This document shows, piece after piece, positions 34,164 through 64,000 of a stretch of 64,000 bases of DNA. The notes beneath the pieces are model-generated. The model ran no database searches, was not told the DNA's origin, and was given only the letters and a program-made list of their open reading frames with translations. Position 1 is the first letter of the stretch. Each line of letters starts with the position of its first letter. Position numbers and translations under genes: made by a program. This stretch comes from Candidatus Krumholzibacteriota bacterium (GTDB taxonomy: Bacteria; Krumholzibacteriota; Krumholzibacteriia; JAJRXK01). Location: contig CAVSGG010000017.1 in the NCBI GenBank assembly GCA_963727455.1, positions 128,001 to 192,000 of the forward strand, given 5' to 3'.

Positions 34164-34849
34164 CCCAAACTTCCCAGGTGCTCGCACCCCACGACATACT
34201 TGCTGTTCTTGGACACCAAGAGGGGGAGACCCTCGAGCACGCGGCGGACCTGAATCGTTCTGTCGCGGTGCGCCTTGACTTCCACCACCAGCGTGCCGGG
34301 AGGTTGTGTGGCGAAGCTCAGATTGGGAGTGGCGCTACCCCACTGGCTCCAGTAGCTCTGGCGGATGTCGACCGTGACACGCACTGCGCGGTCCGCGGTT
34401 CGCAAGTAACTGCGAAGATAGCGGTTGATCATCACTGGCTGATCAAGATCACGCGAAGCGATGAGAATGTCCTGCGGCAGAGAAGCGCGGAGTACATCGA
34501 GAAATGCGCTCCAACTCGTGGCGCGCAGGTCGACGGCGGAGTGCAAGGGAAAGCTCCGCTTCCATCCCAACTTGCCGTGCTTGAGTTTGAACTCGATGTG
34601 ACCGCCTCTGCCATCCAAGTCCTCGCCGTACCAACGGTAACGCAGCTTGCTGCGATCATTCACCCCGGCGTAGTTTTGGTTGAGACGGGAAAGGTCGCGG
34701 GAATCGAAATAGACGTTGTTCACCCAGCGATCGGGATAGAGCTTGCGCAGTCCCATCGGGTGCACGCGTAACTCGGCCAAGAGTCGCGGTAAGTAAGTCT
34801 CCGGCGCAGCCATTTTGATCTCGTAGCGCAGGTCTTCCGCCGGAATCAT
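34160..34849 (-). CDS. VTC (polyphosphate polymerase-like) domain protein
   Basis: RYEIK, NNVYFD, RSKLRYRWY, IEFKLK, RVTVD, VVEVK and SKY. Confidence 0.88.
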   Translation of the reverse strand: MIPAEDLRYEIKMAAPETYLPRLLAELRVHPMGLRKLYPDRWVNNVYFDSRDLSRLNQNYAGVNDRSKLRYRWYGEDLDGRGGHIEFKLKHGKLGWKRSFPLHSAVDLRATSWSAFLDVLRASLPQDILIASRDLDQPVMINRYLRSYLRTADRAVRVTVDIRQSYWSQWGSATPNLSFATQPPGTLVVEVKAHRDRTIQVRRVLEGLPLLVSKNSKYVVGCEHLGSLG

Positions 34850-34852
34850 GAT

Positions 34853-37438
34853 TTAGTTCCCCAAAACGTGAGAAGCATAGAGCTTCGCTACGTCGAAATC
34901 GCTCGTTTCCAGGAGACGTCCATCCAGGGTGACGGTACACCCGGTCTGTACCAGCGCGATTTTTTTGGCGCCAGGCAGGCTCAGATGGGTCGCCTCGAGA
35001 GAGGCGGGGCCGTAGACCGGTTTCTTGACATAAGCCGCCAGGCCGATCTTGGTGTTGCGGAATTCGCCATCTTGTAGAATTACCCGCGAGAGGTCCTTGC
35101 TGGCCGCCCCGATGCTAGCGTTTTCGACCCGCAGCTCACTCGCCCGCAGATTGGTTTCTTCCCCAGCCGAGATGGCCTTGTCGCTGATGCGCACGGCCTC
35201 GAAGCGGCGTACGTCGAGGACACTCCCGCTCAAGTCGAGCGCGTCACCCCCCACGTCGTGAAAGGAACAGTCCAGCACGGTTCCCCGCACGAAGTCTCCG
35301 TCGAGCGCATCGGAATGACAGTCCCCGATCACGCTGTTCTTCATGCTGAAGTCGCAGCGCACAAGATGGAGAGCGTCCTCGCCGCGATGCCCTTCGAAGC
35401 GGCAATCGCTAATAGCCACTGGGCTTTCGTACACCGTTACCCCGCCGCTCAGATCCCAACCCGGCCGGGCGACCCCAGTGGTAGCTTGGACCAGAAGGTG
35501 GCTCCACGAACTCAGCGAGTCCGCCCCCGAGAGGATCAGGCCTCCCCAATCCTCGGCTTGAGGCAGCAGTCGTACCGGTGCATTCTCAGTACCGGCGAGG
35601 TCGAGACGGGCGCGGGCCAGGATGACGGCGCCGTGCTTCATCTTCAGAGTTACTCCCGGCATGAAGCACGTAGGGACCGCGGGCAGGATCAGATCGTCCT
35701 CGAGCTGCCACTCTCCGGGTAACACGAGTAGTTCCTCAGACTTTGCATCCCATCGTAGCCATGGTTTGGTCCCGGCGAAGACCACGGGATCGGCGGGAGC
35801 CTCGGGGAGAATTGCGGGCTGCTCGAAACTCTCGGCTGCCGGACGAGCCGTACACTCACGCCGCGTGGCCGGCAGAGCGAAGCTCTGGAAGACGAGCTTC
35901 ACCGTATCTCCCGCTGTCGGCAGCGGCAATGGCACGCGGAAGCTCTGCGAACGCAGAGCCTGCGTCTTCTCGTGGGCTGGAACGAAGAGCGGTGTCGGCA
36001 ACTCCCAGCTTTCATCACCAACCTTCACGCCCAGGATTTCACTGGGGACGTCACACACCGAGTCGAGGCGAAGCTCGAGACTGTCGTCTGCGGCCTGGTA
36101 CTCCGAGCTGAGTGCGACAAGAATCTTCAACTTTCCCCGGAAGAAGCGCTGTCCGTCGAGCAGTGCGGGAACCGGACTCTGAAGCTCTGGCCACTCGAGG
36201 TGCAGGGCCAAAAGCCGGTCGTGAAGACCCCTGCCATACTCGTCCATCAGGGAACTCGACCAGGTGGGATCGGAGTACTCCCACAGGGCCTTCATGTACT
36301 CGCGCAGGGCCTCTTCTTGCGCCAAGAACCGGCGCACCCAGGGATACCAGCCGCCGCGATTCATGGAAAACTGCTGCCCCGCAAAGAGATCGGAGCGCAT
36401 CTTGTCCTCCTGCGACCAGCCCCAGGGTTCACCGTCGAAGGCGATCGGTTCCAGACGCGCCGTCACCGGATTGTAGTAGAAGCGGAGGTTGTGCCAGATG
36501 AGCGAGTGGTCTGCGCCCCAGATGCGGCACAGCGCGATGTAGTGCGCCATGAGCTTGACGTCGAACACCTCGCTGGGTTTCAGCTCGCCTCTCTGAAAGC
36601 CCTGGAGCAGGTGACGTGCCGCCTCCATCTGATTGCGCAAAATGGGGTCCTTCTCGAGCTTCGCCTGTTGGAAAAAGCTCACCTTCGCGGTCTCGAAATC
36701 GAGATGATCGAGATCGAACCAACCGAGCTGAAGTTCATCGTGCGCAATGCGGCGCTGCTCCCAGTGGGGGTCCTCGTCGAACTTGGCGATGGGGGCTTCG
36801 GCACGGTCCTGGCTCTCCAGCAGCTCTTTGCTAAAGTGCTCTTCGACCGCATAGATCCCCTTGGACTTTCCGTTGAAACTGAGCCTGACGAAATCGTAGC
36901 GCGGAGCGAGGATTCCCTCGCGGCGGACACTGTTCAAGAACAGCCACTCGCCGAGATACTGCCGCACCCAGGGCGCTTGCACCGAGAAGCGACGCATCCC
37001 GTGGTATTGTGTGCCCTTCTTCGTCTTCACTCTGAAGGACCACTTGTCGGTTTCGAAGTGGTCGGGCCAGTCTCCCTTGAGCCGCATTTTCACCGGGATT
37101 GTCTCGCCGTCGGCCTCCAACTCGGCCGGCACTTCGTCCTCGTCGGTGCTGAAGAGGAGCCCCACCCGCAGTGCTTCCTCGCGCTTGGCCAGGATCTTTT
37201 CGTAGTTCTTGAACTTCATGTGGAAGTGAATCTCATCCAACGGGGGCGCGTGCAGGCGGGCATGAATCAGGGATTTGGGCGCGTCGAGGAGCATGCCCTT
37301 GGGATCGTGCTTGACTCGCCGCAGGAAGTCCGGCTGCAAGAGTCCCAGACCGGCCGTGATGACCAGCAGCGCGAAGAGCAAAAGGAGTAGACGCGCGGGC
37401 CAGCGCAGTTTTCGCTCGCCCGTATCGAGGATCTTCAT
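34853..37438 (-). CDS. CotH kinase family protein with C-terminal right-handed beta-helix
   Basis: RLKGD...KWSFRVK, GIYAVEEHF and WHNLRFYYNP....EPIAFD; tail repeats DALDGDF/DALDLSG/DKAISAGE. Confidence 0.85.
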   Translation of the reverse strand: MKILDTGERKLRWPARLLLLLFALLVITAGLGLLQPDFLRRVKHDPKGMLLDAPKSLIHARLHAPPLDEIHFHMKFKNYEKILAKREEALRVGLLFSTDEDEVPAELEADGETIPVKMRLKGDWPDHFETDKWSFRVKTKKGTQYHGMRRFSVQAPWVRQYLGEWLFLNSVRREGILAPRYDFVRLSFNGKSKGIYAVEEHFSKELLESQDRAEAPIAKFDEDPHWEQRRIAHDELQLGWFDLDHLDFETAKVSFFQQAKLEKDPILRNQMEAARHLLQGFQRGELKPSEVFDVKLMAHYIALCRIWGADHSLIWHNLRFYYNPVTARLEPIAFDGEPWGWSQEDKMRSDLFAGQQFSMNRGGWYPWVRRFLAQEEALREYMKALWEYSDPTWSSSLMDEYGRGLHDRLLALHLEWPELQSPVPALLDGQRFFRGKLKILVALSSEYQAADDSLELRLDSVCDVPSEILGVKVGDESWELPTPLFVPAHEKTQALRSQSFRVPLPLPTAGDTVKLVFQSFALPATRRECTARPAAESFEQPAILPEAPADPVVFAGTKPWLRWDAKSEELLVLPGEWQLEDDLILPAVPTCFMPGVTLKMKHGAVILARARLDLAGTENAPVRLLPQAEDWGGLILSGADSLSSWSHLLVQATTGVARPGWDLSGGVTVYESPVAISDCRFEGHRGEDALHLVRCDFSMKNSVIGDCHSDALDGDFVRGTVLDCSFHDVGGDALDLSGSVLDVRRFEAVRISDKAISAGEETNLRASELRVENASIGAASKDLSRVILQDGEFRNTKIGLAAYVKKPVYGPASLEATHLSLPGAKKIALVQTGCTVTLDGRLLETSDFDVAKLYASHVLGN

Positions 37439-37444
37439 CGCGAA

Positions 37445-38125
37445 TCAACCACCCAGGAAGTTCTGCTGTTCGACGAAGGTCACCCGCGCCCCGGGAAACG
37501 CGCTGCGTAGATGATCCATGCCGGCGATGAGTTCCTTGTCACCGCGGCAACGCACCAGATAACTCGCCTGAAGTTCGCCGTCGGCCACGTCCATGCGCCG
37601 CATGTCCGCGTAGCTGAGGTGTTCGGCGAGGACTCTGTGGATGGCCTCGAAGGTGGCGCGGCCGTCCTCCGAAGTGGGAACCACGATGTTCAGGAAGAGG
37701 TTTTCGTCCTTGCGACTGTTGCCGCTGCGCGCTACCAGCGCTCCCACAATGAGGATTACTGGTGCTGCAGCCAGGGCGGAGTATCGCTGGTCCGCTCCCA
37801 AGGCCAAACCCGCTGCGATACACAGGAAGAGGTAGGCCAGCTCTTCGGGCTCTTTGATCGGAGTGCGAAAGCGCACGATGGACAGGGCACCCACCAGCCC
37901 CAAGGACAAGGCCAGGGAGGATTTCACCACGCTGATGATCAGAATCGTGGTCAGAACGATGAAGGGGAAAGTCTTGGCCAGGGCCACTCGGTTGGAGAGG
38001 CTGCGGCCGAATCGAACATAGTGCCAGGCGAAGAGCAGCGACAGAATGATCCCCAGCCCCAGGTTCAAGAGCAGATCGCTGAGCGAGAGGGGGGTCGCCG
38101 CCAACTGGGTAATGCTATTGGGCAT
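37445..38125 (-). CDS. DUF4956 membrane protein
   Basis: SSLALSLGLVGALSIVRFRTPIKEPEE signature. GGAGG RBS. Confidence 0.92.
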   Translation of the reverse strand: MPNSITQLAATPLSLSDLLLNLGLGIILSLLFAWHYVRFGRSLSNRVALAKTFPFIVLTTILIISVVKSSLALSLGLVGALSIVRFRTPIKEPEELAYLFLCIAAGLALGADQRYSALAAAPVILIVGALVARSGNSRKDENLFLNIVVPTSEDGRATFEAIHRVLAEHLSYADMRRMDVADGELQASYLVRCRGDKELIAGMDHLRSAFPGARVTFVEQQNFLGG

Positions 38126-38203
38126 CGTTCCTCCTAGGATCCCGACGAGATTGCGCGAAAAGACTAGCAGAGGGCAGGCCAGGTGGCGATCCGCTTCCGC
38201 CCC

Positions 38204-38253
38204 TTGACAGGAAAGCGGGCTCAGAACATACTTTGATCGGTATCCGTACAAAG
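38204..38253 (+). promoter_or_regulatory. Sigma70-like promoter with overlapping 23-bp palindromic operator (site 1)
   Basis: TTGACA(38204)-N17-CATACT; CTTTGATCGGTATCCGTACAAAG at 38231-38253. Confidence 0.75.
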
Positions 38254-38329
38254 GGTGACCTTTGTTTCCAGCCGCAGACACTCATCTTTGGGAGTGGATC
38301 CTAGCTCGCATCTCTTCGGAGGTCCTCGC

Positions 38330-51907: not shown

Positions 51908-52000
51908 GGTCCTTGGCCAGGCCCTGCGGGGTGAGGGCTCTCCGGACAGTTCATGATCTCAAGGACAGAACCGACCCCACGATCTCAAGAGCAGAATAGA

Positions 52001-52039
52001 AAGGAAGAGGGGCCCGGAGATTCCGGACCCCTCTTTCTT
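52001..52039. terminator. Likely bidirectional intrinsic terminator
   Basis: AAGAGGGGCCCGGA-GAT-TCCGGACCCCTCTT hairpin between convergent genes, with purine- and pyrimidine-rich flanks. Confidence 0.7.
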
Positions 52040-52068
52040 CGCTGGAAACTCGATTCCAAATTTCAGGC

Positions 52069-52800
52069 TTAGCGATACAGCGCCTTGACCTTGCCCCAGC
52101 TGGAAGCCTGGGTGGGAATTGCACCGTTCATGTAGAAGCTCAGGTTATCGTAGAATATCCCCGAAGGTTCGTAGTTCGCGGCGCGGTTCGAGAAGCCGAA
52201 CTGCAGAACCTGGCCGGCCAGAGCCGGGTCGATCGCGATCGAAAGAGCGTAATCGCCCCAGGTGGTGGGAATACTGGTCATGTCGACCGTGATGTAATTC
52301 GTGGTCGCATAGCCGGCGCCCGGATCCAGGGTCTTGATGAAGGCCAGGGCAGTGGAAGCGCCGGCCAGATCTCCATGCTTGGCCTGGAAAGTGAAGTACC
52401 AGGTTTGGCCGACGTCGCCAGCACCGATTGTCTGCTCATGGAACACGTTGGATTCGATGATGTTGCCATTGGCGTGATCGCCATTGTTGTAGTCGCTGAA
52501 CACGGACAACTGCTGGACGCCCTGGGCAGCGCCACCCTGACCGTCCGCGATCGTGCAGAACGCGTAGGGGGGGCCACTGTTGGGGGCGGGATAGACACCG
52601 TAGCCGTAGAGGTAGCTGACACCGTCGGGGGCGAAGACGTTACCGAAGACCAGCCAGCCGTCGGCAGCAAGCGCGCCGGTATCGGTCAGACCGAGGCCCT
52701 CGAAATCTTGGCTGTAGCCCACCAGCTGAGCGCTCGCCAGCACCGGCACCAGGCAGATCAGCAACACGGCCGCGAAAATAGCAGTAGCTCGATTGATCAT
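52069..52800 (-). CDS. Secreted beta-sandwich protein (paralogue of 45788-46765) ending in SWGKVKALYR
   Basis: Signal peptide; YSQDFE...DGWLVFGNV...YLYGYG.YPAPN...FSDY.N.DHA...FYDN.SF shared with the paralogue. Confidence 0.88.
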   Translation of the reverse strand: MINRATAIFAAVLLICLVPVLASAQLVGYSQDFEGLGLTDTGALAADGWLVFGNVFAPDGVSYLYGYGVYPAPNSGPPYAFCTIADGQGGAAQGVQQLSVFSDYNNGDHANGNIIESNVFHEQTIGAGDVGQTWYFTFQAKHGDLAGASTALAFIKTLDPGAGYATTNYITVDMTSIPTTWGDYALSIAIDPALAGQVLQFGFSNRAANYEPSGIFYDNLSFYMNGAIPTQASSWGKVKALYR

Positions 52801-52914
52801 CTCGATATCCTCTCGTTAATGCGATCCTGTTTTCTTGCTACCGAAAGGCACTTGGAATCGGCGCAGTCTCCCCACAGCGGCAGTAGTGGCTGATTCCCGT
52901 ACCTCTAGTCTATA

Positions 52915-52937
52915 CTATGTTCGGTGACCGAATCAAG
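52915..52937. promoter_or_regulatory. Palindromic operator (site 3)
   Basis: CTATGTTCGGTGACCGAATCAAG, overlapping a possible minus-strand TTGATT-N18-TAGACT promoter. Confidence 0.65.
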
Positions 52938-52988
52938 TCGAAGATTGACCCGGAGCAGCAAAATCACGCAAACTGGCCCAAAATTCTG

Positions 52989-53036
52989 TTGACCGCTTCG
53001 CCGGCGAGGGGTACTTTGTTCGTATGTCGAACAAAG
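52989..53036 (+). promoter_or_regulatory. Sigma70-like promoter with perfect palindromic operator (site 4)
   Basis: TTGACC(52989)-N17-TACTTT; CTTTGTTCG-TATGT-CGAACAAAG at 53014-53036. Confidence 0.8.
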
Positions 53037-53092
53037 AAGCCGCTTCCCAAGCCTAGCCTCGGCAAGCCCAAGTTCCCCAACGAGATGGCGCC

Positions 53093-54565
53093 ATGAACCC
53101 AGCCGTGCACGCCAAGACAGCTCCGGAGGACCGGGTTCCTTTCCTGCAGCGACTGGCCTACGGCTCAGGCGCCTTCGTCAACAACCTGCTGGCCGCGGCG
53201 AGCGGCGGCATGATGATCGTGCTGAATCTGGGCTTGGGGATGAATCCCGGCCTGGTCGGCCTGCTAGGGGCTCTGCCTCGTCTCACCGACGCCTTTACCG
53301 ATCCCCTCATGGGATACATTTCGGACAACACCCACACCCGCTGGGGACGGCGGCGGCCCTATATTTTCAGCGGCGCCATCGCGGCGGGGGTGATCTTCGC
53401 TCTCCTATGGCAGTTGCCGCGGGGACAGAGCGAGACCTTCTACTTCGTCTTTTTCCTCGTCGGTTCGATTCTCTTCTACGCCGGCTACACGGTCTTCGCT
53501 ACCCCCTGGGTCGCTCTGGGCTACGAACTCACGCCGGACTACAATGAGCGCACGCGCCTCATGGGAACCCAGAATTTCATCGGTCAGCTCGCGTACGTCG
53601 TCTCGCCCTGGTTTCTGTGGATCATGAACTCCGGCAGGTTCTTCCCGGATCAGGTCTCTGGAGCGGCCGGACTGGCCATCATCGTCGCCGTGGTTGCCAT
53701 CGGCTTGGGAATTCTGCCGGCGATCTTTCTGCGGGAACGCATGAAGCAGGTGGCGGCGGAGGAAATGGACCTCAAGTCGGAGCCCGGGGCCAGCGGTCTC
53801 CTGCACAACATCAAGGAATTTTTGAGAGGTTCGAAGGTCACGCTTTCCAACGGGCCCTTCCTCAAGTTGTGTATGGCTACCTTTCTCGTCTTCAACGGTT
53901 TCATGCTCATCGCCTCCTTTCAGTATTACGTGATCATCTACTACGTCTGCGGTGGTGACCAGACCGCGGGCGCCAAGTACGCCGGCCTGGCCGGTACGGT
54001 GGGCGCGGTGTGCACTTTCGCCGTCGTGGCATTCGTCACCTGGCTCGGCACGCGGATCGGAAAGCGGCACACCTTCTTCCTTGCGATCGGACTCTCCATC
54101 ATCGGTTATGGTCTGAAGTGGGTTTGCTACAACCCCCAGATGCCTCTTCTGGTGGTTCTCCCCGCACCCCTGATGGCCTTCGGCTTGGGCGGGCTGTTCA
54201 CGCTGGTTCCCTCCATGATCGCCGACGTGGTCGACACCGATGAACTCACGACCCACGAACGACGCGAAGGGATGTTTGGCTCCATTTTCTGGTGGATGGT
54301 GAAACTGGGCATGGCCGCGGCGCTGGCGGGCGGCGGCTATCTCCTGAACGCCACCGGTTTCAACGTCGATCTGGGGGGAAATCAAGCCGCGCGGTCCATC
54401 ATCCTCTTGCGGCTGTGCGACGCGGGAATTCCCATGCTGACTTCGGCCCTGGCAATCTGGGCTGTGTCACGCTTCCCCATCTCCGAGGAGAAGGCCCTTC
54501 AAGTGCGCCAGGAGTTGGAACGTCGCCGAGGACGCGCGCCGGTGGTCGAGGCTCTGAAGGGATAG
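53093..54565 (+). CDS. MFS glycoside-pentoside-hexuronide (GPH) sugar:cation symporter
   Basis: DAFTDPLMGYISDNTHTRWGRRRPY, ELTPDYNERT and SMIADVVD.DE...RREG; about 12 TM. Confidence 0.93.
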   Translation: MNPAVHAKTAPEDRVPFLQRLAYGSGAFVNNLLAAASGGMMIVLNLGLGMNPGLVGLLGALPRLTDAFTDPLMGYISDNTHTRWGRRRPYIFSGAIAAGVIFALLWQLPRGQSETFYFVFFLVGSILFYAGYTVFATPWVALGYELTPDYNERTRLMGTQNFIGQLAYVVSPWFLWIMNSGRFFPDQVSGAAGLAIIVAVVAIGLGILPAIFLRERMKQVAAEEMDLKSEPGASGLLHNIKEFLRGSKVTLSNGPFLKLCMATFLVFNGFMLIASFQYYVIIYYVCGGDQTAGAKYAGLAGTVGAVCTFAVVAFVTWLGTRIGKRHTFFLAIGLSIIGYGLKWVCYNPQMPLLVVLPAPLMAFGLGGLFTLVPSMIADVVDTDELTTHERREGMFGSIFWWMVKLGMAAALAGGGYLLNATGFNVDLGGNQAARSIILLRLCDAGIPMLTSALAIWAVSRFPISEEKALQVRQELERRRGRAPVVEALKG

Positions 54566-54569
54566 GATC

Positions 54570-55565
54570 ATGCAGTTGCGCGGCGCAGTGCTTATCCTGC
54601 TCTTAGTCCTCTTCGCTGCTGGTCCCGTGGAGGCTACCCGCGGCGGAGCCGTGACCGGTTCACTTTCCCCAGGAGGAGAACCGTTTTCCATGCGCCCACT
54701 TCAGCTGAATCTACAGGGCATCTGGATCGGCAACGCGATCTGCTATAGCCCCTATCGCGACGGGCAGAACCCCGACGGCGCTTCCCCCAGCTCCGCGCAG
54801 CTTCGCGAGGATTTGCAGCTGATGCTGCCTCACTGGAATCTGCTGCGCACCTACGGGTCCTCGGGTTACGTCGAAGAGCTTCTCTCAATCATCCGAGAGG
54901 AAGAATTGCCCATGCGAGTCATGCTGGGGGTTTGGCTCACGCCGCGGGATTCAACGGCGAACGTGCGAGAGATCGACGAGTCGATTCGCCTGGCCAATGC
55001 GTTTCCTACGATTGTCATCGCGGTATGCGTGGGGAACGAAACGCGCGTCGCTTGGTCGGACCACCGTCTACCGGTGGAAGTTCTCGTTGATGCGATTCGT
55101 CGCGTGCGGGGAAGGGTCGAGGTCCCGGTGACCACCGCCGACGATTTCAAGTACTGGAATCAGGAGGAGAGTCGGAAAGTCGCGGGCGAGATCGATTTCC
55201 TCACCATGCACGCGCACCCTCTGTGGAATGGCATTCAACTTGAGGATGCTCTTCCGTGGCTGGAGCGCCAAGTGGACGCGGTGCAGGCGATACATCCCGA
55301 GAGCGTGATCGTGCTCGGGGAGACGGGGTGGGCCACCGACCACTCCGAAGAGGGGGAGCAGGGTGAACTGATCAAGGGCCAAACGGGGGCACGCCAACAG
55401 AAGCAGTTCTATGAAGCCACTCGTGACTGGGCCAAGCGCAAGACGATCCCGACCTTCATCTTCGAGGCCTTCGACGAGAACTGGAAGGGGGGCGATGATC
55501 CCCAGGAGGTAGAGAAGCATTGGGGTCTCTTCCGCGCGGATCGCACGCCAAAGAGCGAATTCTAG
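54570..55565 (+). CDS. GH17 beta-1,3-glucanase/glucosidase
   Basis: Signal peptide; ICYSPYR, LRTY, VGNE, LGETGW and FEAFDENWK...EKHWGLF. Confidence 0.9.
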   Translation: MQLRGAVLILLLVLFAAGPVEATRGGAVTGSLSPGGEPFSMRPLQLNLQGIWIGNAICYSPYRDGQNPDGASPSSAQLREDLQLMLPHWNLLRTYGSSGYVEELLSIIREEELPMRVMLGVWLTPRDSTANVREIDESIRLANAFPTIVIAVCVGNETRVAWSDHRLPVEVLVDAIRRVRGRVEVPVTTADDFKYWNQEESRKVAGEIDFLTMHAHPLWNGIQLEDALPWLERQVDAVQAIHPESVIVLGETGWATDHSEEGEQGELIKGQTGARQQKQFYEATRDWAKRKTIPTFIFEAFDENWKGGDDPQEVEKHWGLFRADRTPKSEF

Positions 55566-55710
55566 ATCCATCCAGGGCAGGTACGCCTCCTCGAGCGGGA
55601 AAACGCGCGCCTCGACCCTTCAGGGTGGATACTTAGTATCGATAGTAGTTTTCGCGACATTTTGGTCTCGTGTTCTTAACTAGTTCCAGAACTCCTTGTC
55701 GATGATAGAG

Positions 55711-55754
55711 TTGACAGATCGTCCGGAATCCTTTATTCCTTACTCTTCAAAGTA
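55711..55754 (+). promoter_or_regulatory. Putative promoter of the MarR-led operon
   Basis: TTGACA at 55711, weak -10 (TATTCC/T) about 17 nt downstream, in an AT-rich intergenic region with a TACT/AGTA-type pseudo-palindrome. Confidence 0.5.
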
Positions 55755-55833
55755 CTTAAGCCGGTCGCGCCCTCCTTTGGCCCTTGGCCGGGGGCGCGAG
55801 TGAGCGGGCCCCGACCTTCGAGAGAGCCGTCAG

Positions 55834-56391
55834 ATGTTGGACCTGAATCTGGAGGATCGGATCGTCGCGGCTCTCCGTCAGATCATGCGTGCGGTGGATT
55901 TGCACTCGCGGCGGCTGGTGGAGGTCTGTGGACTGACCGGCCCCCAGCTGGCGGTTCTGCAAGAAGCCAGGCGTTTGGGGCCGGTTTCGGCTACCACCCT
56001 GGCCCGTGCCGTTCATCTCAGCCTGCCCACCCTGGTGGGAATTTTGGGTCGGCTTGAATCGCGTGGACTCGTGCGACGTTCGCGCGATGCGACGGATCGC
56101 CGCTCGAAGAGCGTCAACATCACCGATGCGGGGCGCGATACGCTCGAGAAAGCGCCCTCGCTCCTGCAAGATCGCTTCCGCGCCGAGCTGGGACGTCTCG
56201 AGGAGTGGGAACGGTATCTGATGCTCAGCAATCTTCAGCGGATCGCCACCATCATGGGGGCGGAGAGCCTGGAGGCGGCTCCCCACCTGGTAGCGGACGG
56301 GCGCAGTCTGGATGCCGCTGCACACAAAGGTGAGGCTCCAGGCAACGCGATGCCACACGACGGAGACCTCAACTCGGAAAGAAGTCAATGA
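55834..56391 (+). CDS. MarR family regulator, CosR/EctR (osmolyte regulator)-like
   Basis: ALRQIMRAVDLHSRRL...GLTGPQL, DRR, APSLLQDRF...LEEWE and LQRIA.IM.AE.LEAAP closely follow the CosR/EctR pattern as recalled. Confidence 0.88.
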   Translation: MLDLNLEDRIVAALRQIMRAVDLHSRRLVEVCGLTGPQLAVLQEARRLGPVSATTLARAVHLSLPTLVGILGRLESRGLVRRSRDATDRRSKSVNITDAGRDTLEKAPSLLQDRFRAELGRLEEWERYLMLSNLQRIATIMGAESLEAAPHLVADGRSLDAAAHKGEAPGNAMPHDGDLNSERSQ

Positions 56392-57161
56392 TGGAAACAG
56401 CTGCAGGTCTAACGGCGGAGATGCAACCAGTCGCCCCGCCCGTTGCAATCCCCAAAACCCTGCGCGCTCCCCAGGACGGCGAGTACGTGGTTGCCAAACT
56501 CGATGGCCATTGGGAGGAAATCCGGATTCAGGATTACGCTCGCCTCTTCGAGGTTCCGGGACTCTACGAGCAGGTCGTATATGAAGCGCTCGAGTGCAGT
56601 TCGCCGCAGACGATCTCCTCACTGCTCGTGGAACGTCTGGAGGCCGACGGACGCTCCATGGAACAACTGAAGGTGCTCGATCTCGGCGCCGGGAACGGTT
56701 GCGTGGCCGAGGAACTGAGGGACCACGGTGCTCGTGAGTTTCTGGCGATCGACATCTGCCCCGAAGCGAAGGAAGCGGCCGACCGCGATCGGCCCGGCCT
56801 GTACGATTCTTATGTCATCGACGACTTGACCGCACCTCGGCCGTCCACCGTGACGACGCTGAAGCAGGCTCAGCCCAATTGCCTGTGTTGCGTGGCCGCC
56901 TTGGGCTTTCATGACATTCCCGCCGATGCTTTTGCCAACGCCCTCGATTTCGTGGAACCAGATGGATGGGTCGCATTCACGATCAAGTCCGATTTCGTCC
57001 AGAATGGCGACGCTTCGGGCTTCCGGCGACTCATTACGAAACTCATCGATACCGGCGAACTCGAGGTTGAACGGCGCCGGACCTACACGCATCGGCTCGC
57101 TACCGATGGGCGTCCGCTCGAGTATCTCGCCTACGTTGCTCGCAAGAGGGTCAACCCCTAG
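56388..57161 (+). CDS. Class I SAM-dependent methyltransferase
   Basis: KVLDLGAGNG, AIDI. ATGA overlap with the MarR gene. Confidence 0.88.
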   Translation: MMETAAGLTAEMQPVAPPVAIPKTLRAPQDGEYVVAKLDGHWEEIRIQDYARLFEVPGLYEQVVYEALECSSPQTISSLLVERLEADGRSMEQLKVLDLGAGNGCVAEELRDHGAREFLAIDICPEAKEAADRDRPGLYDSYVIDDLTAPRPSTVTTLKQAQPNCLCCVAALGFHDIPADAFANALDFVEPDGWVAFTIKSDFVQNGDASGFRRLITKLIDTGELEVERRRTYTHRLATDGRPLEYLAYVARKRVNP

Positions 57162-57224
57162 CAGTGGTCTCTTGGCGCAAGCCCAAGTCGGGAGTGATTC
57201 TCCATCGATTTTCACCGTGGCATA

Positions 57225-57668
57225 TTGCCTCTGTCGATCCTGTTGTGTCTCTGCTCGGCCCTCTCTGCGTTGGCCGCACAGGCGCCGCAGTTCGAAGAGT
57301 CCGAGATGAGTTCCGCTGAGGGCTACGCGATGATCCGCTGGGATCATCCTGACGAGTCCCTCGATGCACAGTTCCAACTGGTCGTCTTGGGTCCCGATAG
57401 TTTACGAATGACCTACGAAACGCCGGAGCAGAGCACCTTCCTTTCCGGGCTCTCCAATGGAGATTATGAATTGCGAGTGCGTCACCGCTCCGACTCCTCG
57501 GACGAGTGGGAGCAGTGGTCGCAGCCCATGACTTTGGAAGTCGAGCATCATCCTTTGGGGCTTGCCTTCGCCCTCTTCGTCGCGGGCGCCATCATGTTTC
57601 TTTCGATCGTCATCTTCCTGATTCGCCACGCCAACGACGCTCTGGAAGTCGAGAACGGAGCCGTCTGA
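57225..57668 (+). CDS. Small exported FN3-like domain protein with C-terminal TM helix
   Basis: IRW...FLSGLSNGDYELRVR...WS (FN3-like), then HHPLGLAFALFVAGAIMFLSIVIFLI. Start uncertain. Confidence 0.7.
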   Translation: MPLSILLCLCSALSALAAQAPQFEESEMSSAEGYAMIRWDHPDESLDAQFQLVVLGPDSLRMTYETPEQSTFLSGLSNGDYELRVRHRSDSSDEWEQWSQPMTLEVEHHPLGLAFALFVAGAIMFLSIVIFLIRHANDALEVENGAV

Positions 57669-59101
57669 TGATCATTCTGAGCACTACCCACGGCTGGCTG
57701 CTGTTGGCCGGTTTGGCCCTCTTATGGGTCGTCTTGGGCATCTATTGGGGACGCCGGGCCAAGTCGCTGGAAGGCTTCATGCTCGCCAACCGCAACGTGG
57801 GGCTCGCTCTGGGGACTGCCACCGCCGTCGCCACCTGGATCACTTCCAACACCACCATGCTGGCGCCGCAATTCGCGCTGCAGCTGGGGCTGTGGGGAAT
57901 CCTGGCTTACTGCACCGCCTCCATCGGCCTCTTTCTCTTTGCGCCCATGGCGCGGCGCATTCGCGAACTCATGCCGCATGGCTTCACCAGCACCGAGTTC
58001 GTTCGTCTCCGCTACGGGAAGACGGCATGGATCGTCTTCCTCATCATCTCCCTCTTCTATGCCATCACCTGGATGGTCAGCATGGGGATGGCGGGAGGAA
58101 TCCTGCTGGAATCTCTGGCTGGAATTCCCTATGCACAGGGCATGAGCGTAATTCTGGGGGTGTGTGTGTTGTACACGCTCTTCGGAGGGCTTTACGCCGT
58201 CATTGGTACGGACTTCATCCAGAGCCTCATCATCCTGGTGGGTACGGTGGCAGTGGCGATCACCGTGATTCAGCGCGTTCCCCTGCACGGCGTGTACGAC
58301 AATCTCGAGGCCCATCGCCCCGAGCTTCTGCGCGTTCTGTTTCCCGCGGCCATCATGGCGGTGTTCAACAATCTGCTCTTCGGTCTCGGCGAGGTGTTTC
58401 ACAGTAATGTCTGGTGGAGCCGCGCCTTTGCCATGCGCAAGGGTGTGGGGAAGAAGGCATACATCCTGGCCGGTTTGCTCTGGCTTCCCGTACCCATCGT
58501 GGCGGGTTTCTTGGGTCTCGCCGCGCCGGCTCTCGATATCGCGATTCCGCGTCCGGACATGGTGGGGCCGGTAGTCGCCGCGACCATTTTGGGCTACGCC
58601 GGCGCGGTCCTGGTGTTCGTGGTCGTGTTCTGTTCTTTGGCTTCGAGCATCGACAGTCTGCTGGCCGCGACTTCGGATCTGGTGACGAAGGACCTGGTCC
58701 AACCCATTTTCATGCCTGAGGCCGATGAGCGAAGGCTTCGAAGTGTCTCCACTTGGGTCGTCGTCGCGGTGGGCGCAATCACCTGGCTATTGTGCCTACC
58801 CAAGATGGGCACTCTGGCCAGCGTGCTCTTCTTCGCCGGACCGATGGTGGCGAGTACGATCTGGCCCATCCTCTATGGCCTGTATCGGCGCGATGCAACC
58901 GGCAAGGGCGCGGTGGCCGCGATGTCAGGGGGCACGATCGTCGGACTGGTAGCCTACTTCACTCTGGGCTGGTATACCGCCTCGCTCATCGGCACCGCGG
59001 TCTCCTTCACTCTCTTGGTGACGATCACCAAATTCGCACCCAGTCGCTTCGACTGGCGCAAACTCGACGCACGGCCCGAAAACGCGATGGAGGTGAGCTA
59101 G
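57668..59101 (+). CDS. Sodium:solute symporter (SSS) family transporter
   Basis: FMLANRNVG, ATWI, EFVRLRYG, YTLFGGLYAVIGTDFIQ and ASSIDSLL; about 13 TM; TGATG coupling. Confidence 0.92.
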   Translation: MIILSTTHGWLLLAGLALLWVVLGIYWGRRAKSLEGFMLANRNVGLALGTATAVATWITSNTTMLAPQFALQLGLWGILAYCTASIGLFLFAPMARRIRELMPHGFTSTEFVRLRYGKTAWIVFLIISLFYAITWMVSMGMAGGILLESLAGIPYAQGMSVILGVCVLYTLFGGLYAVIGTDFIQSLIILVGTVAVAITVIQRVPLHGVYDNLEAHRPELLRVLFPAAIMAVFNNLLFGLGEVFHSNVWWSRAFAMRKGVGKKAYILAGLLWLPVPIVAGFLGLAAPALDIAIPRPDMVGPVVAATILGYAGAVLVFVVVFCSLASSIDSLLAATSDLVTKDLVQPIFMPEADERRLRSVSTWVVVAVGAITWLLCLPKMGTLASVLFFAGPMVASTIWPILYGLYRRDATGKGAVAAMSGGTIVGLVAYFTLGWYTASLIGTAVSFTLLVTITKFAPSRFDWRKLDARPENAMEVS

Positions 59102-59222
59102 GTGTTCTCACTCGTGTTTTTCAGCGTTCTGTATTGGATCGGAATCGTCTTGACCAGTGTTGGGCATTCTCACTCTCATCGTTCTCTTCTTGATCGATGC
59201 TGGAAGGAAGAAGCTATGGTAA
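59102..59222 (+). CDS. 39-aa single-TM protein obscured by one extra base
   Basis: Removing one G from the GGG run at 59162-59164 gives MFSLVFFSVLYWIGIVLTSVGILTLIVLFLIDAGRKKLW*. Its TAA overlaps the next ATG (TAATG). GGAGG RBS upstream. Confidence 0.6.
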
Positions 59223-60333
59223 TGGCGCCGGATTCAATTTCCCAAAAGTCCGCTAACGATCTCTCGAGAGCCAAGCCTGGACTCAATTCCAAGGGAGGAG
59301 TGCTCGATCCGGGCAAGCTCCTCGAGGCACACGGGCAGACCATAGACTTCGAGCGTCTGCATTCCCTCAGTGGAAAGTCGATCCTCGGCGTTGAACAACT
59401 CAGTCGCGAATCGGTCATCGAGCTGTGCAAATTCAGCGCTCTCTTGGAACGCACCGAAATCGCCAGCCACCACCCGTTGGACGGGAAGATCTGTATCACC
59501 GCGTTCTTTGAGGCGAGTACGCGCACGCGTCTTTCCTTCGAGAGTGCCGTTCTGCGACTCGACGGAAAGATGCTGAGCGTGCCCGACGGGCGAGTCACGG
59601 GCGTGGCCAAGGGAGAATCGCTGGAGGACATCGGCGAGATGTTCAACAGCCTATGGCGATCTGGTCGTCATGCGACACCCCGAAACTGATGCCGTCGAGC
59701 GGATCTCCAGAAATCTCACCCTTCCGCTTGATCAATGCGGGCAACGGCTCGGGGCAGCATCCCACGCAGGCCCTGCTCGATTGGTACGCCCTCTTGAAAT
59801 GGCGGCCCGAGCTCGTCTGGCGCGAGGTCAAGCCCGAGAAGAAGATCCATCTCGGAATCATCGGTACCCCGGGCAGCATGCGCGCGGTCAAGAGTTTCCT
59901 GCGAATGTCCCTGTTGTTCCACCATGCTATCGACCGCATCACCGTGGTCTCCGAAATGCGAGATCCATTGGGTCCGCGGCTGAGAGAACTCACGAAGAAC
60001 TCGTCTGTCGAGCTGAAGTGTACCGACGACGTTTCCAAGATCTTGCCCGAGCTGGATGTCATTTATATGAACTCCATCGCCTTTCTCGGAGATAGTTATC
60101 GACAAATGGACTCGCGCTTCAGCCTGAGCCACAAGAGTTCCCTGAAGAAGGGTGCGGTGGTGCTCCATCCTCTCGCACGCCGGCAGGAACTCTCGGAGTC
60201 CCTCGACGCCAGTCAGCACAACCTCTACTTCGCACAGGCCTCCGGGGCGGTTTTCATGCGTCAGGCTTTACTCATCACCATTCTGGATCGCATTCGCGCG
60301 CTGCCCAAGAGCGTGCTCTATCTTGTCAGCTGA
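59222..60333 (+). CDS. Aspartate carbamoyltransferase-like paralogue (about 369 aa) interrupted by two +1 frameshifts near 59648 and 59728
   Basis: FFEASTRTRLSFESA and KGESLED, then +1 frame YGDLVVMRHP, then +2 frame LINAGNGSGQHPTQALLD and HPLARR. 1112 nt minus 2 equals 370 codons. Confidence 0.85.
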
Positions 60334-60353
60334 GAAGAAGGGAAGGGACCACC

Positions 60354-62321
60354 GTGTGCGGGATCGTCGGAACTTGGAAACTCGATAAGGTAGAGGATGC
60401 CGAGCGCGCTGCACTCGAAGACGCCATGGAGCTCCTGAAGCACCGGGGGCCGGACGGCAGGGGCCGGCACATCGATGAGGATCGTGGCTTGGCCATGGGC
60501 CACACGAGACTCTCCATCATCGACCTCAAGACGGGGGACCAGCCCTTGATCGACTCCGTCACCAAAAATGTGCTCACGGTCAACGGCGAGTTTTATGATT
60601 ACAAGACCATACGCGCCCAACTCGCCACGAAGGGACATCGCTTCCAAACCAAGTCGGACAGTGAGATCGCGCTGCATCTGTTGCGTGTTCACGGACTCGA
60701 CTTCGTTCACCATCTGCGTGGCGAGTTTGCCTTCGCGCTCTATGATCGGGCGGAAGACCGCCTCCTTTTGGTTCGGGACCGCTTCGGAATCAAACCACTG
60801 TACTACCATTTCAGCGAAGATCGCATCGTCTACGCTTCTGAAGTCAAGGCCATCCTGGCCATGCCGAACCTGCCGCGAGTACTGTCCCGTCAGGCCGCGC
60901 TCAACCAGCTCATGCACGTCATGGTTCCGGGCACCACCGCTTTTGAGGGAGTGAAGGCCGTGAAGCCCGGTCACATGCTCTCGATTCGCAAGCGCAACGG
61001 CCGCCTGGAGTTGAAGGAGATAAAGTACTGGGACATGGAGTTTCCCGAGTCGAAGGCGTACAAGCGCAAGCGTGACCCCAATCTCTTCATCGAGGAGGTG
61101 CGAGAGGGTCTCATTGACGCGGTTCGAACTCGTCTGGAGGCCGACGTTCCGGTGGGTTGCTATCTCTCGGGCGGAATCGACAGCTGCTCCATGCTCGGCT
61201 TGGCCACTCCAATGCAGCAGAGTCCGGTCAAGGCATTCACGATCAGCTTCGACCACGCCGACTACGACGAATCCAAGATCGCGGCGGAGATGGCTGAACG
61301 AACGGGAGCCGATCAGGTCGTACTCCGACTGAAGGGTGAGGATCTTTACGGCGGTCCCTACGTCCGCGCGGTGTGGCACGCGGAGAGAACTTTCTACAAC
61401 ACCCTCGGAGTGGCGAAGTGGCACATGAGCCGCCGCGTGCACGATTGTGGATTCAAGGTGGTGGTGACGGGCGAGGGTTCCGACGAACTCTTCGCCGGCT
61501 ATCCCTTCTTCAAACGCGACTATTTCCAGCAGGATCCCAAGGCGAGCAAGAGCAAGAGAGAGTCTGCTGCCTCGGACGCTCTCTTCCAGGGCGCCATTCT
61601 GGCTGAGGAGCAATCCCATCACCCCGCGTTCGATGATCTGTGCGGTTTCACTCCGTCCTGGATTCAGCCCTGGCTGCTCACACTGAAGGAAATTCAGCCG
61701 CTCCTCACGGCTGGAATGCGCGAAGAACTCTCAGATTACGATCCGGTGGCAGCGATCGCCGAGCAAATCGATCCGAAAATGCTGCGCGGGCGACATCCAC
61801 TGGACAAGGCGCAGTACACCTGGATCAAGACCATGCTCGAGGGACAGATCCTGAGCTGGGGGGGAGACAGGGTCGACATGGCCAACTCAATGGAGAGTCG
61901 ACCCGCATTTTTGGACCATCATCTCGCCGAGCTGGCGACGACGATTCCTCCGGAACTGAGAATCAGGAACGGGGTAGAGAAATGGGTGTTGCGCGAAGCA
62001 ATGAAGGGCGTGCTCCCGAAGACTCTCTACGAGCGGCCGAAATTTGCGTTCATGGCGCCGCCCAGTCGCACCAACCAGGGCAATCGCCGCGCGGTGGAAC
62101 CTCTCCTGCGCTTGCTCTTGAATCGCGAATCTGTCGAACAGGCCGAGCTTCTCGATCCTGGCGCCGTGGATTCGTTCTTGAAAGAATGGCGCGGTCAACG
62201 CGACGCGGCGCGTTCCCGCCGCCTCGACATCATTCTGAATCACATTTTGGGCTTACAAATTCTCCACAGCGAGTTCGTGGAGGCGAAACCGGGCGCGTCG
62301 CTCGCGCGTGCTTACGCGTAA
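60354..62321 (+). CDS. asnB: Asparagine synthase (glutamine-hydrolysing) family amidotransferase
   Basis: N-terminal MCGI (Ntn Cys), HRGPD, RLSIID, NGEFY, RDRFGIKPLY, YLSGGIDS, TGEGSDE and EKWVLREAM. Confidence 0.93.
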   Translation: MCGIVGTWKLDKVEDAERAALEDAMELLKHRGPDGRGRHIDEDRGLAMGHTRLSIIDLKTGDQPLIDSVTKNVLTVNGEFYDYKTIRAQLATKGHRFQTKSDSEIALHLLRVHGLDFVHHLRGEFAFALYDRAEDRLLLVRDRFGIKPLYYHFSEDRIVYASEVKAILAMPNLPRVLSRQAALNQLMHVMVPGTTAFEGVKAVKPGHMLSIRKRNGRLELKEIKYWDMEFPESKAYKRKRDPNLFIEEVREGLIDAVRTRLEADVPVGCYLSGGIDSCSMLGLATPMQQSPVKAFTISFDHADYDESKIAAEMAERTGADQVVLRLKGEDLYGGPYVRAVWHAERTFYNTLGVAKWHMSRRVHDCGFKVVVTGEGSDELFAGYPFFKRDYFQQDPKASKSKRESAASDALFQGAILAEEQSHHPAFDDLCGFTPSWIQPWLLTLKEIQPLLTAGMREELSDYDPVAAIAEQIDPKMLRGRHPLDKAQYTWIKTMLEGQILSWGGDRVDMANSMESRPAFLDHHLAELATTIPPELRIRNGVEKWVLREAMKGVLPKTLYERPKFAFMAPPSRTNQGNRRAVEPLLRLLLNRESVEQAELLDPGAVDSFLKEWRGQRDAARSRRLDIILNHILGLQILHSEFVEAKPGASLARAYA

Positions 62322-62365
62322 ACGACTCGCCCGGAGTGTCATGCCGTGAGGCTACGATTGGATCG

Positions 62366-62773
62366 TCAGCGGATCGGAATCATGGGGCATTCGAAACGCT
62401 TCACCACGTCGCCAATCGAAATCTGACCGGCATCTACCGCGTCATGGATCTCTTCCGCGTTGGTGAATTGCTTCGGAGAGATCGTCAGCCAATTGATGGG
62501 ACGGACCTTCCAGCGGCCACCATTGAAGTCCATGTCCCCGGGCGCCGCGTCCGCGACGTTGGCCAGTTCACCGCCCAAGACATAGATGGTATCAAACTTC
62601 CCGTGGTCAGGGAGAGCCGTCGGGGTCCCGATTGTTTTGAACTGCTGGTCGTGAGCATAGATCACCCCATCCGGGGGGCCGCCCTTGGCAAAGGCGACGG
62701 ATCCGAAAGTGAGGCTCATGGCCAGAGCCATAACAAGAGCTGTGAGGAAAAATGAAGTTCTACGCGTTCTCAT
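62366..62773 (-). CDS. Small secreted hypothetical protein
   Basis: AGAGGAG RBS, signal ending AFA-K, then VADAAPGDMDFNGGRW...FECPMIP. Confidence 0.75.
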   Translation of the reverse strand: MRTRRTSFFLTALVMALAMSLTFGSVAFAKGGPPDGVIYAHDQQFKTIGTPTALPDHGKFDTIYVLGGELANVADAAPGDMDFNGGRWKVRPINWLTISPKQFTNAEEIHDAVDAGQISIGDVVKRFECPMIPIR

Positions 62774-63605
62774 GAACGAATCTCCTCTGATGTGAGTGAA
62801 GTGCGCCACTGGCCAAAGCCACGCTGGCGCTCTTTGGTCTCCGGTGGGATCGGTGGAGGACTTACGGCTCGGTCGTCGGGATGTGACCGAACCACCGTGC
62901 GAAGATCGGCGGCACACCTTTTCTGCCTTGGGACGCGAGGGGCTTGAATTGAGAGATTCCGGATCTTTTGCTCGTGATGGTCCACGAGGATTGCCACGCC
63001 AGTCACAGCTTCGATTCAAGAAGGCAACCATGCGCTGCTTTGGCGCCCCGCTCGCGCTGTGCTCGGCGTGCGCGCTCTTTGCTTGCTCGAACACCAGCAG
63101 GTCCAATTTCATGGTGCAGTTCCACTGAGTCTCGCTCACCTTGGTGTGCGGCGGCACCTTCCGTGCGAAGACCTTGGACGCAGTGAACTGCGTGTGGCCG
63201 TCGAATCCCGACGACTGTTTCACGGCGGCCTTCATGTTGCTGGGCGGTTCTTTCACTGGAGAGTCGGGCCGGTCATTGGTATTCAGGGTCAGCGATGCCG
63301 GCGAACTGGAAGGTGTGCTCGACACGGTCCGATTCGGATTGGTCGACCCCTCCTAAGAGCCGGTCCGCGACAGCTTCGAAGGAGGTCCGGGCGGAGACTT
63401 TCCCACAATACCAGCCTGTCTGGGCTCACGGCGTTCCGCCTTGGACAGCGGCGAAGTGGTCGTTAATGCGCCCCCGGAGTTGTCGCGAAACACAGAGGAG
63501 TCCGTTGCCTCGGGCTCGGTGAGCCCGAGATTGCCGTGCTGTGCCCGGTCCTGATAGAATGGATCGGTCCCCTCCCCGCCCATTCCCCAGGACCAGGAAG
63601 AAGCC

Positions 63606-64000
63606 ATGGATGCCAGTCCCGCGCGTCGCGCACTTTCGTTCCTTTTCCCTGCTTTCCTTTTACTTCTCACTTCAGGCGTTTCCTACGCGGATACGATCCT
63701 GCAAAACGACGGCTACACTTCGGGTGCGAATGTCGGTTTTCAGGGGGGGTTCGTCACTGGAGAAATCGGTGCATCGCGCTTCCTTTTGCCGGGATCCAAT
63801 CCCGTGCAGCTCAAGAGCGTCATCTTACTGCTGGGTGGAGCCTCGACTCAGGTCACCATTACGCTGCACGTTTGGGATGACTCGTCCTTGGGCAACGATC
63901 CTGGCAGCGAGCTGTACAGCGGCGACTACCAACTCATAGGCTCGGACAACAACCTGCAGCAGATCGATTTGAGCGGGCAGAGCATCTTCGTATCCGCTCC
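63606..64000 (+). CDS. Secreted hypothetical protein, truncated by the window end
   Basis: AGGAAG then ATG 63606; MDASPARRALSFLFPAFLLLLTSGVSYA-DTILQNDG... stays open to 64000 (absent from the ORF track because it has no stop). Confidence 0.75.
   Translation, partial: MDASPARRALSFLFPAFLLLLTSGVSYADTILQNDGYTSGANVGFQGGFVTGEIGASRFLLPGSNPVQLKSVILLLGGASTQVTITLHVWDDSSLGNDPGSELYSGDYQLIGSDNNLQQIDLSGQSIFVSA

Follow-up and report, generated by a model that had tools for sequence, protein, structure and literature searches.

A subgroup 3 pseudo-ATCase and its conserved gene cassette in a Candidatus Krumholzibacteriota genome

RESULTS

The ATCase-like gene and its reading frames

This study concerns an aspartate transcarbamoylase (ATCase)-like gene in a stretch of 64,000 nucleotides from a Candidatus Krumholzibacteriota bacterium (GenBank assembly GCA_963727455.1, contig CAVSGG010000017.1, positions 128,001 to 192,000 of the forward strand), here called the window, from whose first nucleotide all coordinates are counted. 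The source genome is a metagenome-assembled genome (MAG) of 18 contigs and 88.9% completeness. A first-pass annotation made from the DNA alone had described the gene as a protein encoded at 59222..60333 that kept the carbamoyl-phosphate site of ATCase, had lost the residues that hold the aspartate side chain, and would be a transcarbamylase of new specificity. All the motifs on which that description was based are real in the DNA, but the protein is not an open reading frame (ORF), having been stitched together from three frames. No single ORF covers 59222-60333; the ORFs listed there are 59102-59689 (frame 2), 59670-60095 (frame 0), and 59653-60333 (frame 1), and three-frame translation placed the ATCase-like protein in all three, with two +1 shifts between the pieces.

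59216..59650, plus strand: ATCase-like piece 1, frame 2; N-terminal extension, STRTR, and KGES, ending in ...GEMFNS; Pfam OTCace_N, 2.8e-16
59650..59651, plus strand: frameshift 1; one extra C in the window, context AACAG[C]CTATGG
59652..59725, plus strand: ATCase-like piece 2, frame 0, 25 codons; YGDLVVMRHPE... with the Arg105 equivalent, in agreement with intact orthologues
59726..59726, plus strand: frameshift 2; one extra G in the window, context CCTTCC[G]CTTGATC
59728..60333, plus strand: ATCase-like piece 3, frame 1; INAGNG, HPTQ, MRAVKS, YMNSIAFLG, and HPLAR; stop at 60331-60333

The start codon is likely the ATG at 59216, which follows a purine-rich stretch and lies two codons 5' of 59222. 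The frame-0 piece reads YGDLVVMRHPETDAVERISRNLTLP, and the frame-1 piece starts L-INAGNGSGQHPTQ and runs to the stop. STRT, KGE, MRH, and HPTQ are present where they had been placed, although they do not share a frame: STRT and KGE are in frame 2, MRH is in frame 0, and HPTQ is in frame 1. The last piece matched the end of Pfam OTCace_N and OTCace (5.7e-10), which, together with the OTCace_N match of the first piece, shows that the motifs are not there by chance.

Conserved residues, phylogeny, and fold

In ATCase, Arg229 and Gln231 anchor the beta-carboxylate of aspartate, Arg167 and Lys84 of the neighboring chain position its alpha-carboxylate, and the RxQxER motif is stated to be common to all known ATCases (Shi et al. 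2015, PMC4581275). Alignment of the window protein with solved ATCases by phmmer bore out what had been claimed for these positions. GTPGSMRAVKS, found in frame 1, pairs with GDLKNGRTVHS, so that the Arg167 equivalent is retained; YMNSIA---FLG pairs with YMTRIQKERF of the Plasmodium enzyme, which puts Ser at the Arg229 position and Ala at the Gln231 position in a 240s loop three residues shorter than in the solved enzymes; and LHPLAR pairs with LHPLPR, with Ala at the Pro268 position. The SMG and HCLP motifs of ornithine transcarbamylase (OTCase) are both absent, as had also been noted.

Conservation was examined in 200 full-length members of the family, 80 from genome loci and 120 from a protein search. 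All 200 keep the S, R, and T of STRT, the K-G-E motif, the Arg105 equivalent (MRH), the H and Q of HPTQ, and M-R-x-V-x-S (M-R-A-V-K-S) with the Arg167 equivalent; 199 also have the second T of STRT. The 240s loop reads Y-[MVI]-N-S-I-A-[FL]-L-G-D, with N, S, and I invariant, and RxQxER occurs in none, while the HPLP position is HPLA (Ala in 199/200), as in the HPLAR of the window. The transcarbamylase features that bind carbamoyl phosphate (SxRT, HPxQ, the Arg105 equivalent, and the 80s-loop Lys) are all encoded in the window, over its three frames. The family thus keeps all that is needed for carbamoyl phosphate and for the alpha-carboxylate of the second substrate; judging from these alignments, the side-chain clamp is exchanged for a different, equally conserved loop that is uncharged and shorter.

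When the C-terminal piece was the query, an exhaustive HMMER search returned 15 representatives at E <= 1e-30, below which the scores dropped across a gap to ordinary ATCases. With a 364-residue intact orthologue as the query (L007, from a genome of the same family, G008), a word-indexed search returned 3431 clusters at E <= 1e-30 among 8000 scored candidates, and those that are named carry the label "aspartate carbamoyltransferase" or "aspartate/ornithine carbamoyltransferase family protein." A tree of 102 sequences (quick IQ-TREE search, LG+G4), rooted on the source genome's own ArgF and YgeW-like proteins, united the core members, the divergent members, and a group that we call subB in one clade on a long stem inside the ATCase branch (SH-aLRT, 100); the core clade, whose genes lie in the cassette described below, had a support of 99. 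The sister clade subB (P0016-P0047; loci L097-L099) has lost KGE, varies at the STRT and HPLA positions, and is degenerate in its carbamoyl-phosphate residues; its genes lie outside the cassette, among unrelated housekeeping genes (RF3, BolA, Uma2, SCO1, MutL, and RibBA), and subB may be a true pseudoenzyme.

The AlphaFold2 model of the G008 orthologue is confident overall (pLDDT, 91.5; pTM, 0.91) and less sure in the loop at about residues 281-290. Its best Foldseek matches are ATCases with bound ligands, with TM-scores of up to 0.89 at about 30% identity. The whole clade carries an N-terminal extension of about 45 residues not found in ordinary ATCases (about 59216-59370 in the window; residues 1-50 of L007), with conserved Pro26, Leu29, and Leu42 and a confident model from residue 21 onward in L007.

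Other transcarbamylases of the source genome

The source genome has four OTCace-family genes, including the ATCase-like gene. One encodes a canonical PyrB of 317 amino acids with a normal loop and HPGP, and it adjoins a dihydroorotase-like ORF (pyrC); another encodes an ArgF of 307 amino acids with SMG and HCLP. The fourth product, a YgeW-like knotted carbamoyltransferase of 403 amino acids (L003, contig C11), scored 377 bits against the NF005538 cut-off of 453 and is a second transcarbamylase of this genome that has no known substrate. For the intact orthologue L007, all NCBIfam ATCase and OTCase models fell below their curated cut-offs: TIGR00670 gave 169.1 against 236.95, NF002032 gave 162.4 against 263, NF006046 gave 148 against 512, and the OTCase models gave at most 75 bits against cut-offs of at least 280. 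Identity as an OTCase was rejected on these scores and on the absence of a DxxxSMG loop and of HCLP from the window protein.

Gene neighborhood in the window

The ATCase-like gene lies within a run of genes on the same strand.

55834..56388, plus strand: MarR-family regulator; Pfam MarR, 2.7e-13; homologue near the cassette in 17/80 loci
56388..57158, plus strand: SAM-dependent methyltransferase-like protein; Pfam Methyltransf_23/11/25; homologue in 6/80 loci only
57225..57668, plus strand: small protein; N-terminal signal-like stretch and C-terminal hydrophobic helix; its stop overlaps the transporter ATG at 57665
57665..59101, plus strand: sodium:solute symporter (SSS); Pfam SSF, 1.6e-26; NCBIfam PanF and PutP matches far under their cut-offs
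60354..62321, plus strand: AsnB-type glutamine-dependent amidotransferase of 655 amino acids; N-terminal Cys and SGGIDS loop; begins 21 nucleotides past the ATCase-like stop

The AsnB-like protein, a PP-loop amidotransferase, matched Pfam Asn_synthase (4.5e-88) and GATase_7 (3.3e-41) and scored 433 bits with TIGR01536, above the cut-off of 267. The source genome has four strong AsnB-type paralogues with open frames of about 630 to 740 amino acids (contigs C10, C5 twice, and C17), which makes it unlikely that the cassette protein is the housekeeping enzyme. The small protein matched no Pfam or NCBIfam family. A promoter and terminator scan of 55500-63500 found no more sites than in shuffled sequence, and a riboswitch search found no Rfam family at the gathering score in 11 loci and only chance-level matches in 52000-64000 of the window. 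Far from this run, adjoining genes at 34163-38281 on the minus strand encode proteins with a VTC domain, a CotH kinase domain, and DUF4956.

The cassette in other genomes

A scan of one genome per species, with a five-sequence C-terminal alignment as the query, found 222 loci, of which the best 80 were examined. These 80 come from at least nine phyla: Planctomycetota (31), Verrucomicrobiota (20), Bacteroidota (11), Myxococcota (7), Calditrichota (2), Pseudomonadota (2), Gemmatimonadota (1), Spirochaetota (1), and Ignavibacteriota (1), with 4 unassigned. Twelve loci have titles not flagged as a MAG or isolate bin, among them those of Rhodopirellula, Flexithrix dorotheae, Flavilitoribacter nigricans, and Pelagicoccus, although one of the twelve (L028, Rhodopirellula sp. 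JB055) is labeled a MAG in the scan listing. To judge from the titles, marine or soda-lake taxa account for many related loci.

The order of the genes is nearly constant. An AsnB-like homologue lies directly downstream of the ATCase-like gene in 79/80 loci, the exception being a locus that ends right after that gene, and an SSS homologue lies directly upstream in 77/80, the remaining three beginning at the ATCase-like gene. The small protein gave a tblastn match in 39/80 loci, and a cluster of small-protein ORFs occupies the same position in 71/80, always on the plus strand just upstream of the transporter. A gene for an M20 hydrolase was found in 58/80 loci (and in 49 of the 61 with at least 1.5 kilobases beyond AsnB), and an isochorismatase-like gene was found in 35/80; the two move as a unit, lying after asnB on the same strand, convergent to asnB, or divergent upstream. 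The M20 protein belongs to the hydantoinase/carbamoylase family (TIGR01879, 359 bits against a cut-off of 204), with the N-carbamyl-L-glutamate amidohydrolase ErtE as its second-best model, and the isochorismatase-like protein has biuret hydrolase and RutB as its nearest, though weak, matches. No carbamate kinase is among the recurrent neighbors of the 80 loci, and the ATCase-like gene does not adjoin pyrC or pyrI.

Cassette proteins are 52 to 75% identical across phyla, with short branches, and the groups in their trees ignore phylum boundaries (L010-L089), a pattern that points to the block having been transferred horizontally, in its entirety, more than once. For the cassette overall, identity is 55 to 65% over the nine or more phyla, in an unchanged gene order. 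The best 120 of 3431 homologues and the best 120 of 1465, from two queries, belong to Planctomycetota, Myxococcota, Bacteroidota, and Gemmatimonadota; no Ectothiorhodospira is among these listed matches, which is no evidence of its absence from the family. A cluster look-up of ten divergent members gave Actinophytocola sp. as the sole named organism.

Status of the frameshifts

Alignment of the DNA with a same-genus genome (G003) and with the same-family genome G008 revealed exactly two window-specific single-base insertions. We also compared Logan contigs from four public runs (X1, X2, X3, and X5) over 58900-60500. Wetland metagenomes supplied the near-identical contigs apart from a small salt-marsh share (X5), which matches 58900-59038 only, upstream of the ATCase-like gene. 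Contigs of the wetland runs X1 and X2 are without the extra base at both 59650 and 59726, as are those of the wetland run X3 at 59726, the only one of the two sites that they span; all assembled depth in the runs that span the sites is without the insertion. Since the contigs and the related genomes lack both insertions, the ATCase-like gene is intact in the population. The window and a population contig differ by 14 substitutions in 1119 bases, with the flanking 138 and 322 bases identical; 8 substitutions are synonymous and the other six codon changes are conservative (M/V, R/K, V/I, R/K, L/F, and K/N), which indicates purifying selection and not an old pseudogene. An intergenic indel at 59159 also separates the window from the population contigs, as does one pair of indels within the gene.

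59814 and 59819/59821, plus strand: compensating indel pair relative to the population contigs; two to three residues altered, frame kept; ELVWRE in the window, EFSLRE in G003

As to the window copy itself, we lean toward local consensus errors in the assembly rather than very recent inactivation in this strain. A real, recently formed pseudogene, a question that lies on a separate axis from that of function, is somewhat doubtful. It would account for the crowding, into about 700 bases, of both frameshifts, the compensating pair, and the intergenic indel, and for 14 substitutions between identical flanks; neither insertion sits in a long homopolymer, and the G003 copy is frame-broken too, in both the ATCase-like gene and asnB. 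Set against it are the absence of the insertions from all assembled depth in the runs that span the sites, the mark of purifying selection on the substitutions, and the likewise split state of a histidine kinase gene elsewhere in the window, which points to the quality of the assembly.

That hybrid histidine kinase gene, at 29432-31068 on the minus strand, appears to hold the window's second frameshift-like break: PAS and HisKA domains are encoded in one ORF (30031-31068), which shares 40 nucleotides with another (29432-30070) whose HATPase_c match begins only at model position 35 and is followed by a partial receiver domain. The G003 cassette (L006) is broken near the C terminus of the ATCase-like gene and within asnB, and either both assemblies are error prone or the cassette is decaying in the genus.

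DISCUSSION

The motif set and gene context reported here were described in 2013 by Barba et al. (PMC4016543) under the name "pseudo-ATCase subgroup 3," with the function left open. Their Table 1 has a row with STRT, HPTQ, HPLA, and AIA, AIS, or SIA in place of RxQ (R230-Q232); it labels the row "pseudo-ATCase 1," whereas the text places the gene context under "Subgroup 3," a mismatch of numbering between table and text. Subgroup 3 comprises marine bacteria, namely Rhodopirellula baltica SH1 (RB13301; Q7UHC6), Nitrosococcus oceani, Synechococcus WH8102, and Kangiella koreensis, and its gene lies in a conserved block, between a Na+ symporter and a "putative asparaginase." The gene in the window has STRT, HPTQ, HPLA, and SIA for RxQ, falls like subgroup 3 in the ATCase II part of the tree, and has the same flanks, a symporter at 57665-59101 and an AsnB-like gene at 60354-62321; it differs in that the window copy is frameshifted and that its own genome has no detectable HyuC-like neighbor. 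It is the source genome's member of subgroup 3, and the present scan widens the scope of the group from the four species named in the available text of that paper to 222 loci, the best 80 of which span at least nine phyla. The observation was thus already published. What stands of the first-pass proposal of a transcarbamylase of new specificity is a separate, conserved lineage with an intact carbamoyl-phosphate site, a clamp for the alpha-carboxylate, and a remodeled pocket; what falls is its newness. Apart from Barba et al., the literature that we searched yielded no paper that mentions pseudo-ATCase, RB13301, or Q7UHC6, and none on this combination of genes; a microarray study of salt shift in R. 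baltica and two papers on salinity in Synechococcus do not mention the cassette genes in their main text.

A conserved, separate lineage in a genome with a genuine pyrB elsewhere is most naturally read as an enzyme with a different second substrate. We tentatively propose, from the sequence and its gene context, that the protein is an active, ATCase-derived, carbamoyl phosphate-dependent transcarbamylase that no longer uses aspartate, that it may act on an uncharged amino acid, and that its product may be amidated by the AsnB-like enzyme; we regard this as possible, though less than an even prospect. The equivalents of Ser52, Thr53, Arg54, Thr55, Arg105, His134, Gln137, and Lys84 of the neighboring chain would hold carbamoyl phosphate as they do in ATCase, and those of Arg167 and Lys84 would hold the alpha-carboxylate of the second substrate. 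The beta-carboxylate clamp of Arg229 and Gln231 would have given way to the invariant, shorter Y-x-N-S-I-A loop, and carbamoylation would take place at the alpha-amino group of an amino acid whose side chain is uncharged, with Gln, Asn, or a small neutral residue as candidates. The cotranscribed AsnB-like enzyme might then use ATP and glutamine to amidate a carboxylate of the product, yielding an N-carbamoyl amino-acid amide, while the M20 N-carbamoyl-amino-acid hydrolase and the isochorismatase-like amidase, present in most of the other genomes, might undo both modifications; the four enzymes would amount to one maker and one breaker for each of two capping groups, ureido and amide. The SSS transporter and its small membrane partner would take up the product or a precursor.

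Several observations weigh against this proposal. Among amidotransferases whose substrate is known, none is specifically close to the AsnB-like protein (the best solved relative scored 163 bits, and TIGR03104 gave 303 bits against a cut-off of 570), and in its present form the window copy of the ATCase-like gene carries frameshifts. The M20 and isochorismatase-like genes were not found in the source genome with the queries used, in a MAG that is 88.9% complete; the M20 query gave at best a 25.6-bit partial match, and the window has no M20 gene. The solute pool reported for R. baltica SH1 in the available part of PMC3694870 consists of sucrose, glutamate, trehalose, and mannosylglucosylglycerate, with no carbamoyl compound, and since this organism has RB13301, the product does not serve it as a major osmolyte. 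The importer heads the operon, an arrangement more typical of catabolism, and the only characterized pseudo-ATCase, the ureidoglycine carbamoyltransferase (UGTCase) of Rubrobacter, is catabolic (PMC4016543).

These last two points belong to the main rival reading, in which a ureido compound imported from the environment is cleaved with phosphate to carbamoyl phosphate and an amino acid, as by UGTCase, catabolic OTCase, and putrescine transcarbamylase (PTCase), and the M20 and isochorismatase-like hydrolases release nitrogen by taking off further ureido or amide groups. The Rubrobacter enzyme, which is the closest characterized relative and, although from another subgroup, the only pseudo-ATCase assayed, phosphorolyses allantoate (PMC4016543); the importer is at the head of the cassette in 77/80 loci, and the cassette usually has two hydrolases of ureido-compound families at its flanks; and the autotrophs Synechococcus WH8102 and Nitrosococcus oceani have members (PMC4016543), in which scavenging of organic nitrogen is plausible. 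We nonetheless consider a catabolic role rather unlikely, given that UGTCase genes adjoin a carbamate kinase gene and no such gene clusters among the recurrent neighbors of the 80 loci, that an amidotransferase of the AsnB type, which consumes ATP and glutamine, accompanies the gene in 79/80 loci and would have no evident use in a degradative pathway, and that the family has HPLA and not the H(T/S)LP signature of UGTCase. A noncatalytic protein, for instance one with a regulatory or scaffolding role beside the AsnB-like enzyme or the transporter, would suit the name "pseudo-ATCases" given to the group by Barba et al. (PMC4016543) and the loss of carbamoyl-phosphate residues in subB; such a role is very improbable, because the invariance of those residues over 200 members is hard to explain without catalysis and one pseudo-ATCase subgroup is a proven enzyme (PMC4016543). 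Least credible of all, and in our judgment negligible, is a second, ordinary aspartate transcarbamoylase: family members bear that enzyme's name in public databases (aspartate carbamoyltransferase, in some cases catalytic subunit) and have its fold and carbamoyl-phosphate site, but RxQxER is missing from all 200 members, every ATCase equivalog model is under its cut-off, and a genuine pyrB-pyrC pair lies elsewhere in the genome.

If the protein is indeed a transcarbamylase of altered specificity, its substrate, once found, would define a new specificity in the family and probably a new pathway for a small, nitrogen-rich metabolite in marine and saline bacteria; the label "aspartate carbamoyltransferase" on thousands of family proteins is almost certainly wrong. 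Interest would be high if the substrate tied the cassette to an orphan metabolite. One such compound is N-carbamoyl-glutamine amide, a compatible solute of Ectothiorhodospira marismortui (PMC1224877 and PMC7824335, which name no genes for it in the text available), for which no biosynthetic gene was found in the literature searched. It is a speculative and improbable suggestion that the cassette is the missing genetic basis for making and recycling N-carbamoyl amino-acid amides. The cassette is present in tractable or well-studied organisms, including R. baltica, F. dorotheae, and Pelagicoccus.

Among known systems, the PyrB enzymes of E. coli (1d09), Trypanosoma cruzi (6jkt), and Plasmodium falciparum (5ilq) share the fold (TM-scores of 0.85 to 0.89, about 30% identity), the carbamoyl-phosphate site, Arg167, and Lys84 with the ATCase-like family, which differs in having no RxQxER, a loop three residues shorter, HPLA, and the N-terminal extension of about 45 residues. 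UGTCase of Rubrobacter xylanophilus (Rxyl_2847) is, like the protein described here, a paralogue on the ATCase branch that keeps its carbamoyl-phosphate site intact and has lost the RxQ clamp, and the side chain of its substrate is neutral; in contrast, it has the H(T/S)LP signature (PMC4581275) and other loop residues where this family has HPLA, and its genes adjoin carbamate kinase, allantoinase, and purine-catabolic genes, none of which recurs in the 80 loci or occurs in the window. Identity with UGTCase was rejected on these grounds.

A further likeness, by analogy only, is to the N-acetylglutaminylglutamine amide (NAGGN) genes, a trio in which an amidotransferase of the AsnO type is encoded with an N-acylating enzyme. 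In the cassette as in that trio, an AsnB-type amidotransferase is encoded with an amino-capping enzyme, a pairing that would give an uncharged, capped amino-acid amide; the two differ in that the AsnB-like protein falls well short of the NAGGN amidotransferase model (TIGR03104, 303 bits against a cut-off of 570) and that the capping enzyme of the cassette is a transcarbamylase and not an acetyltransferase.

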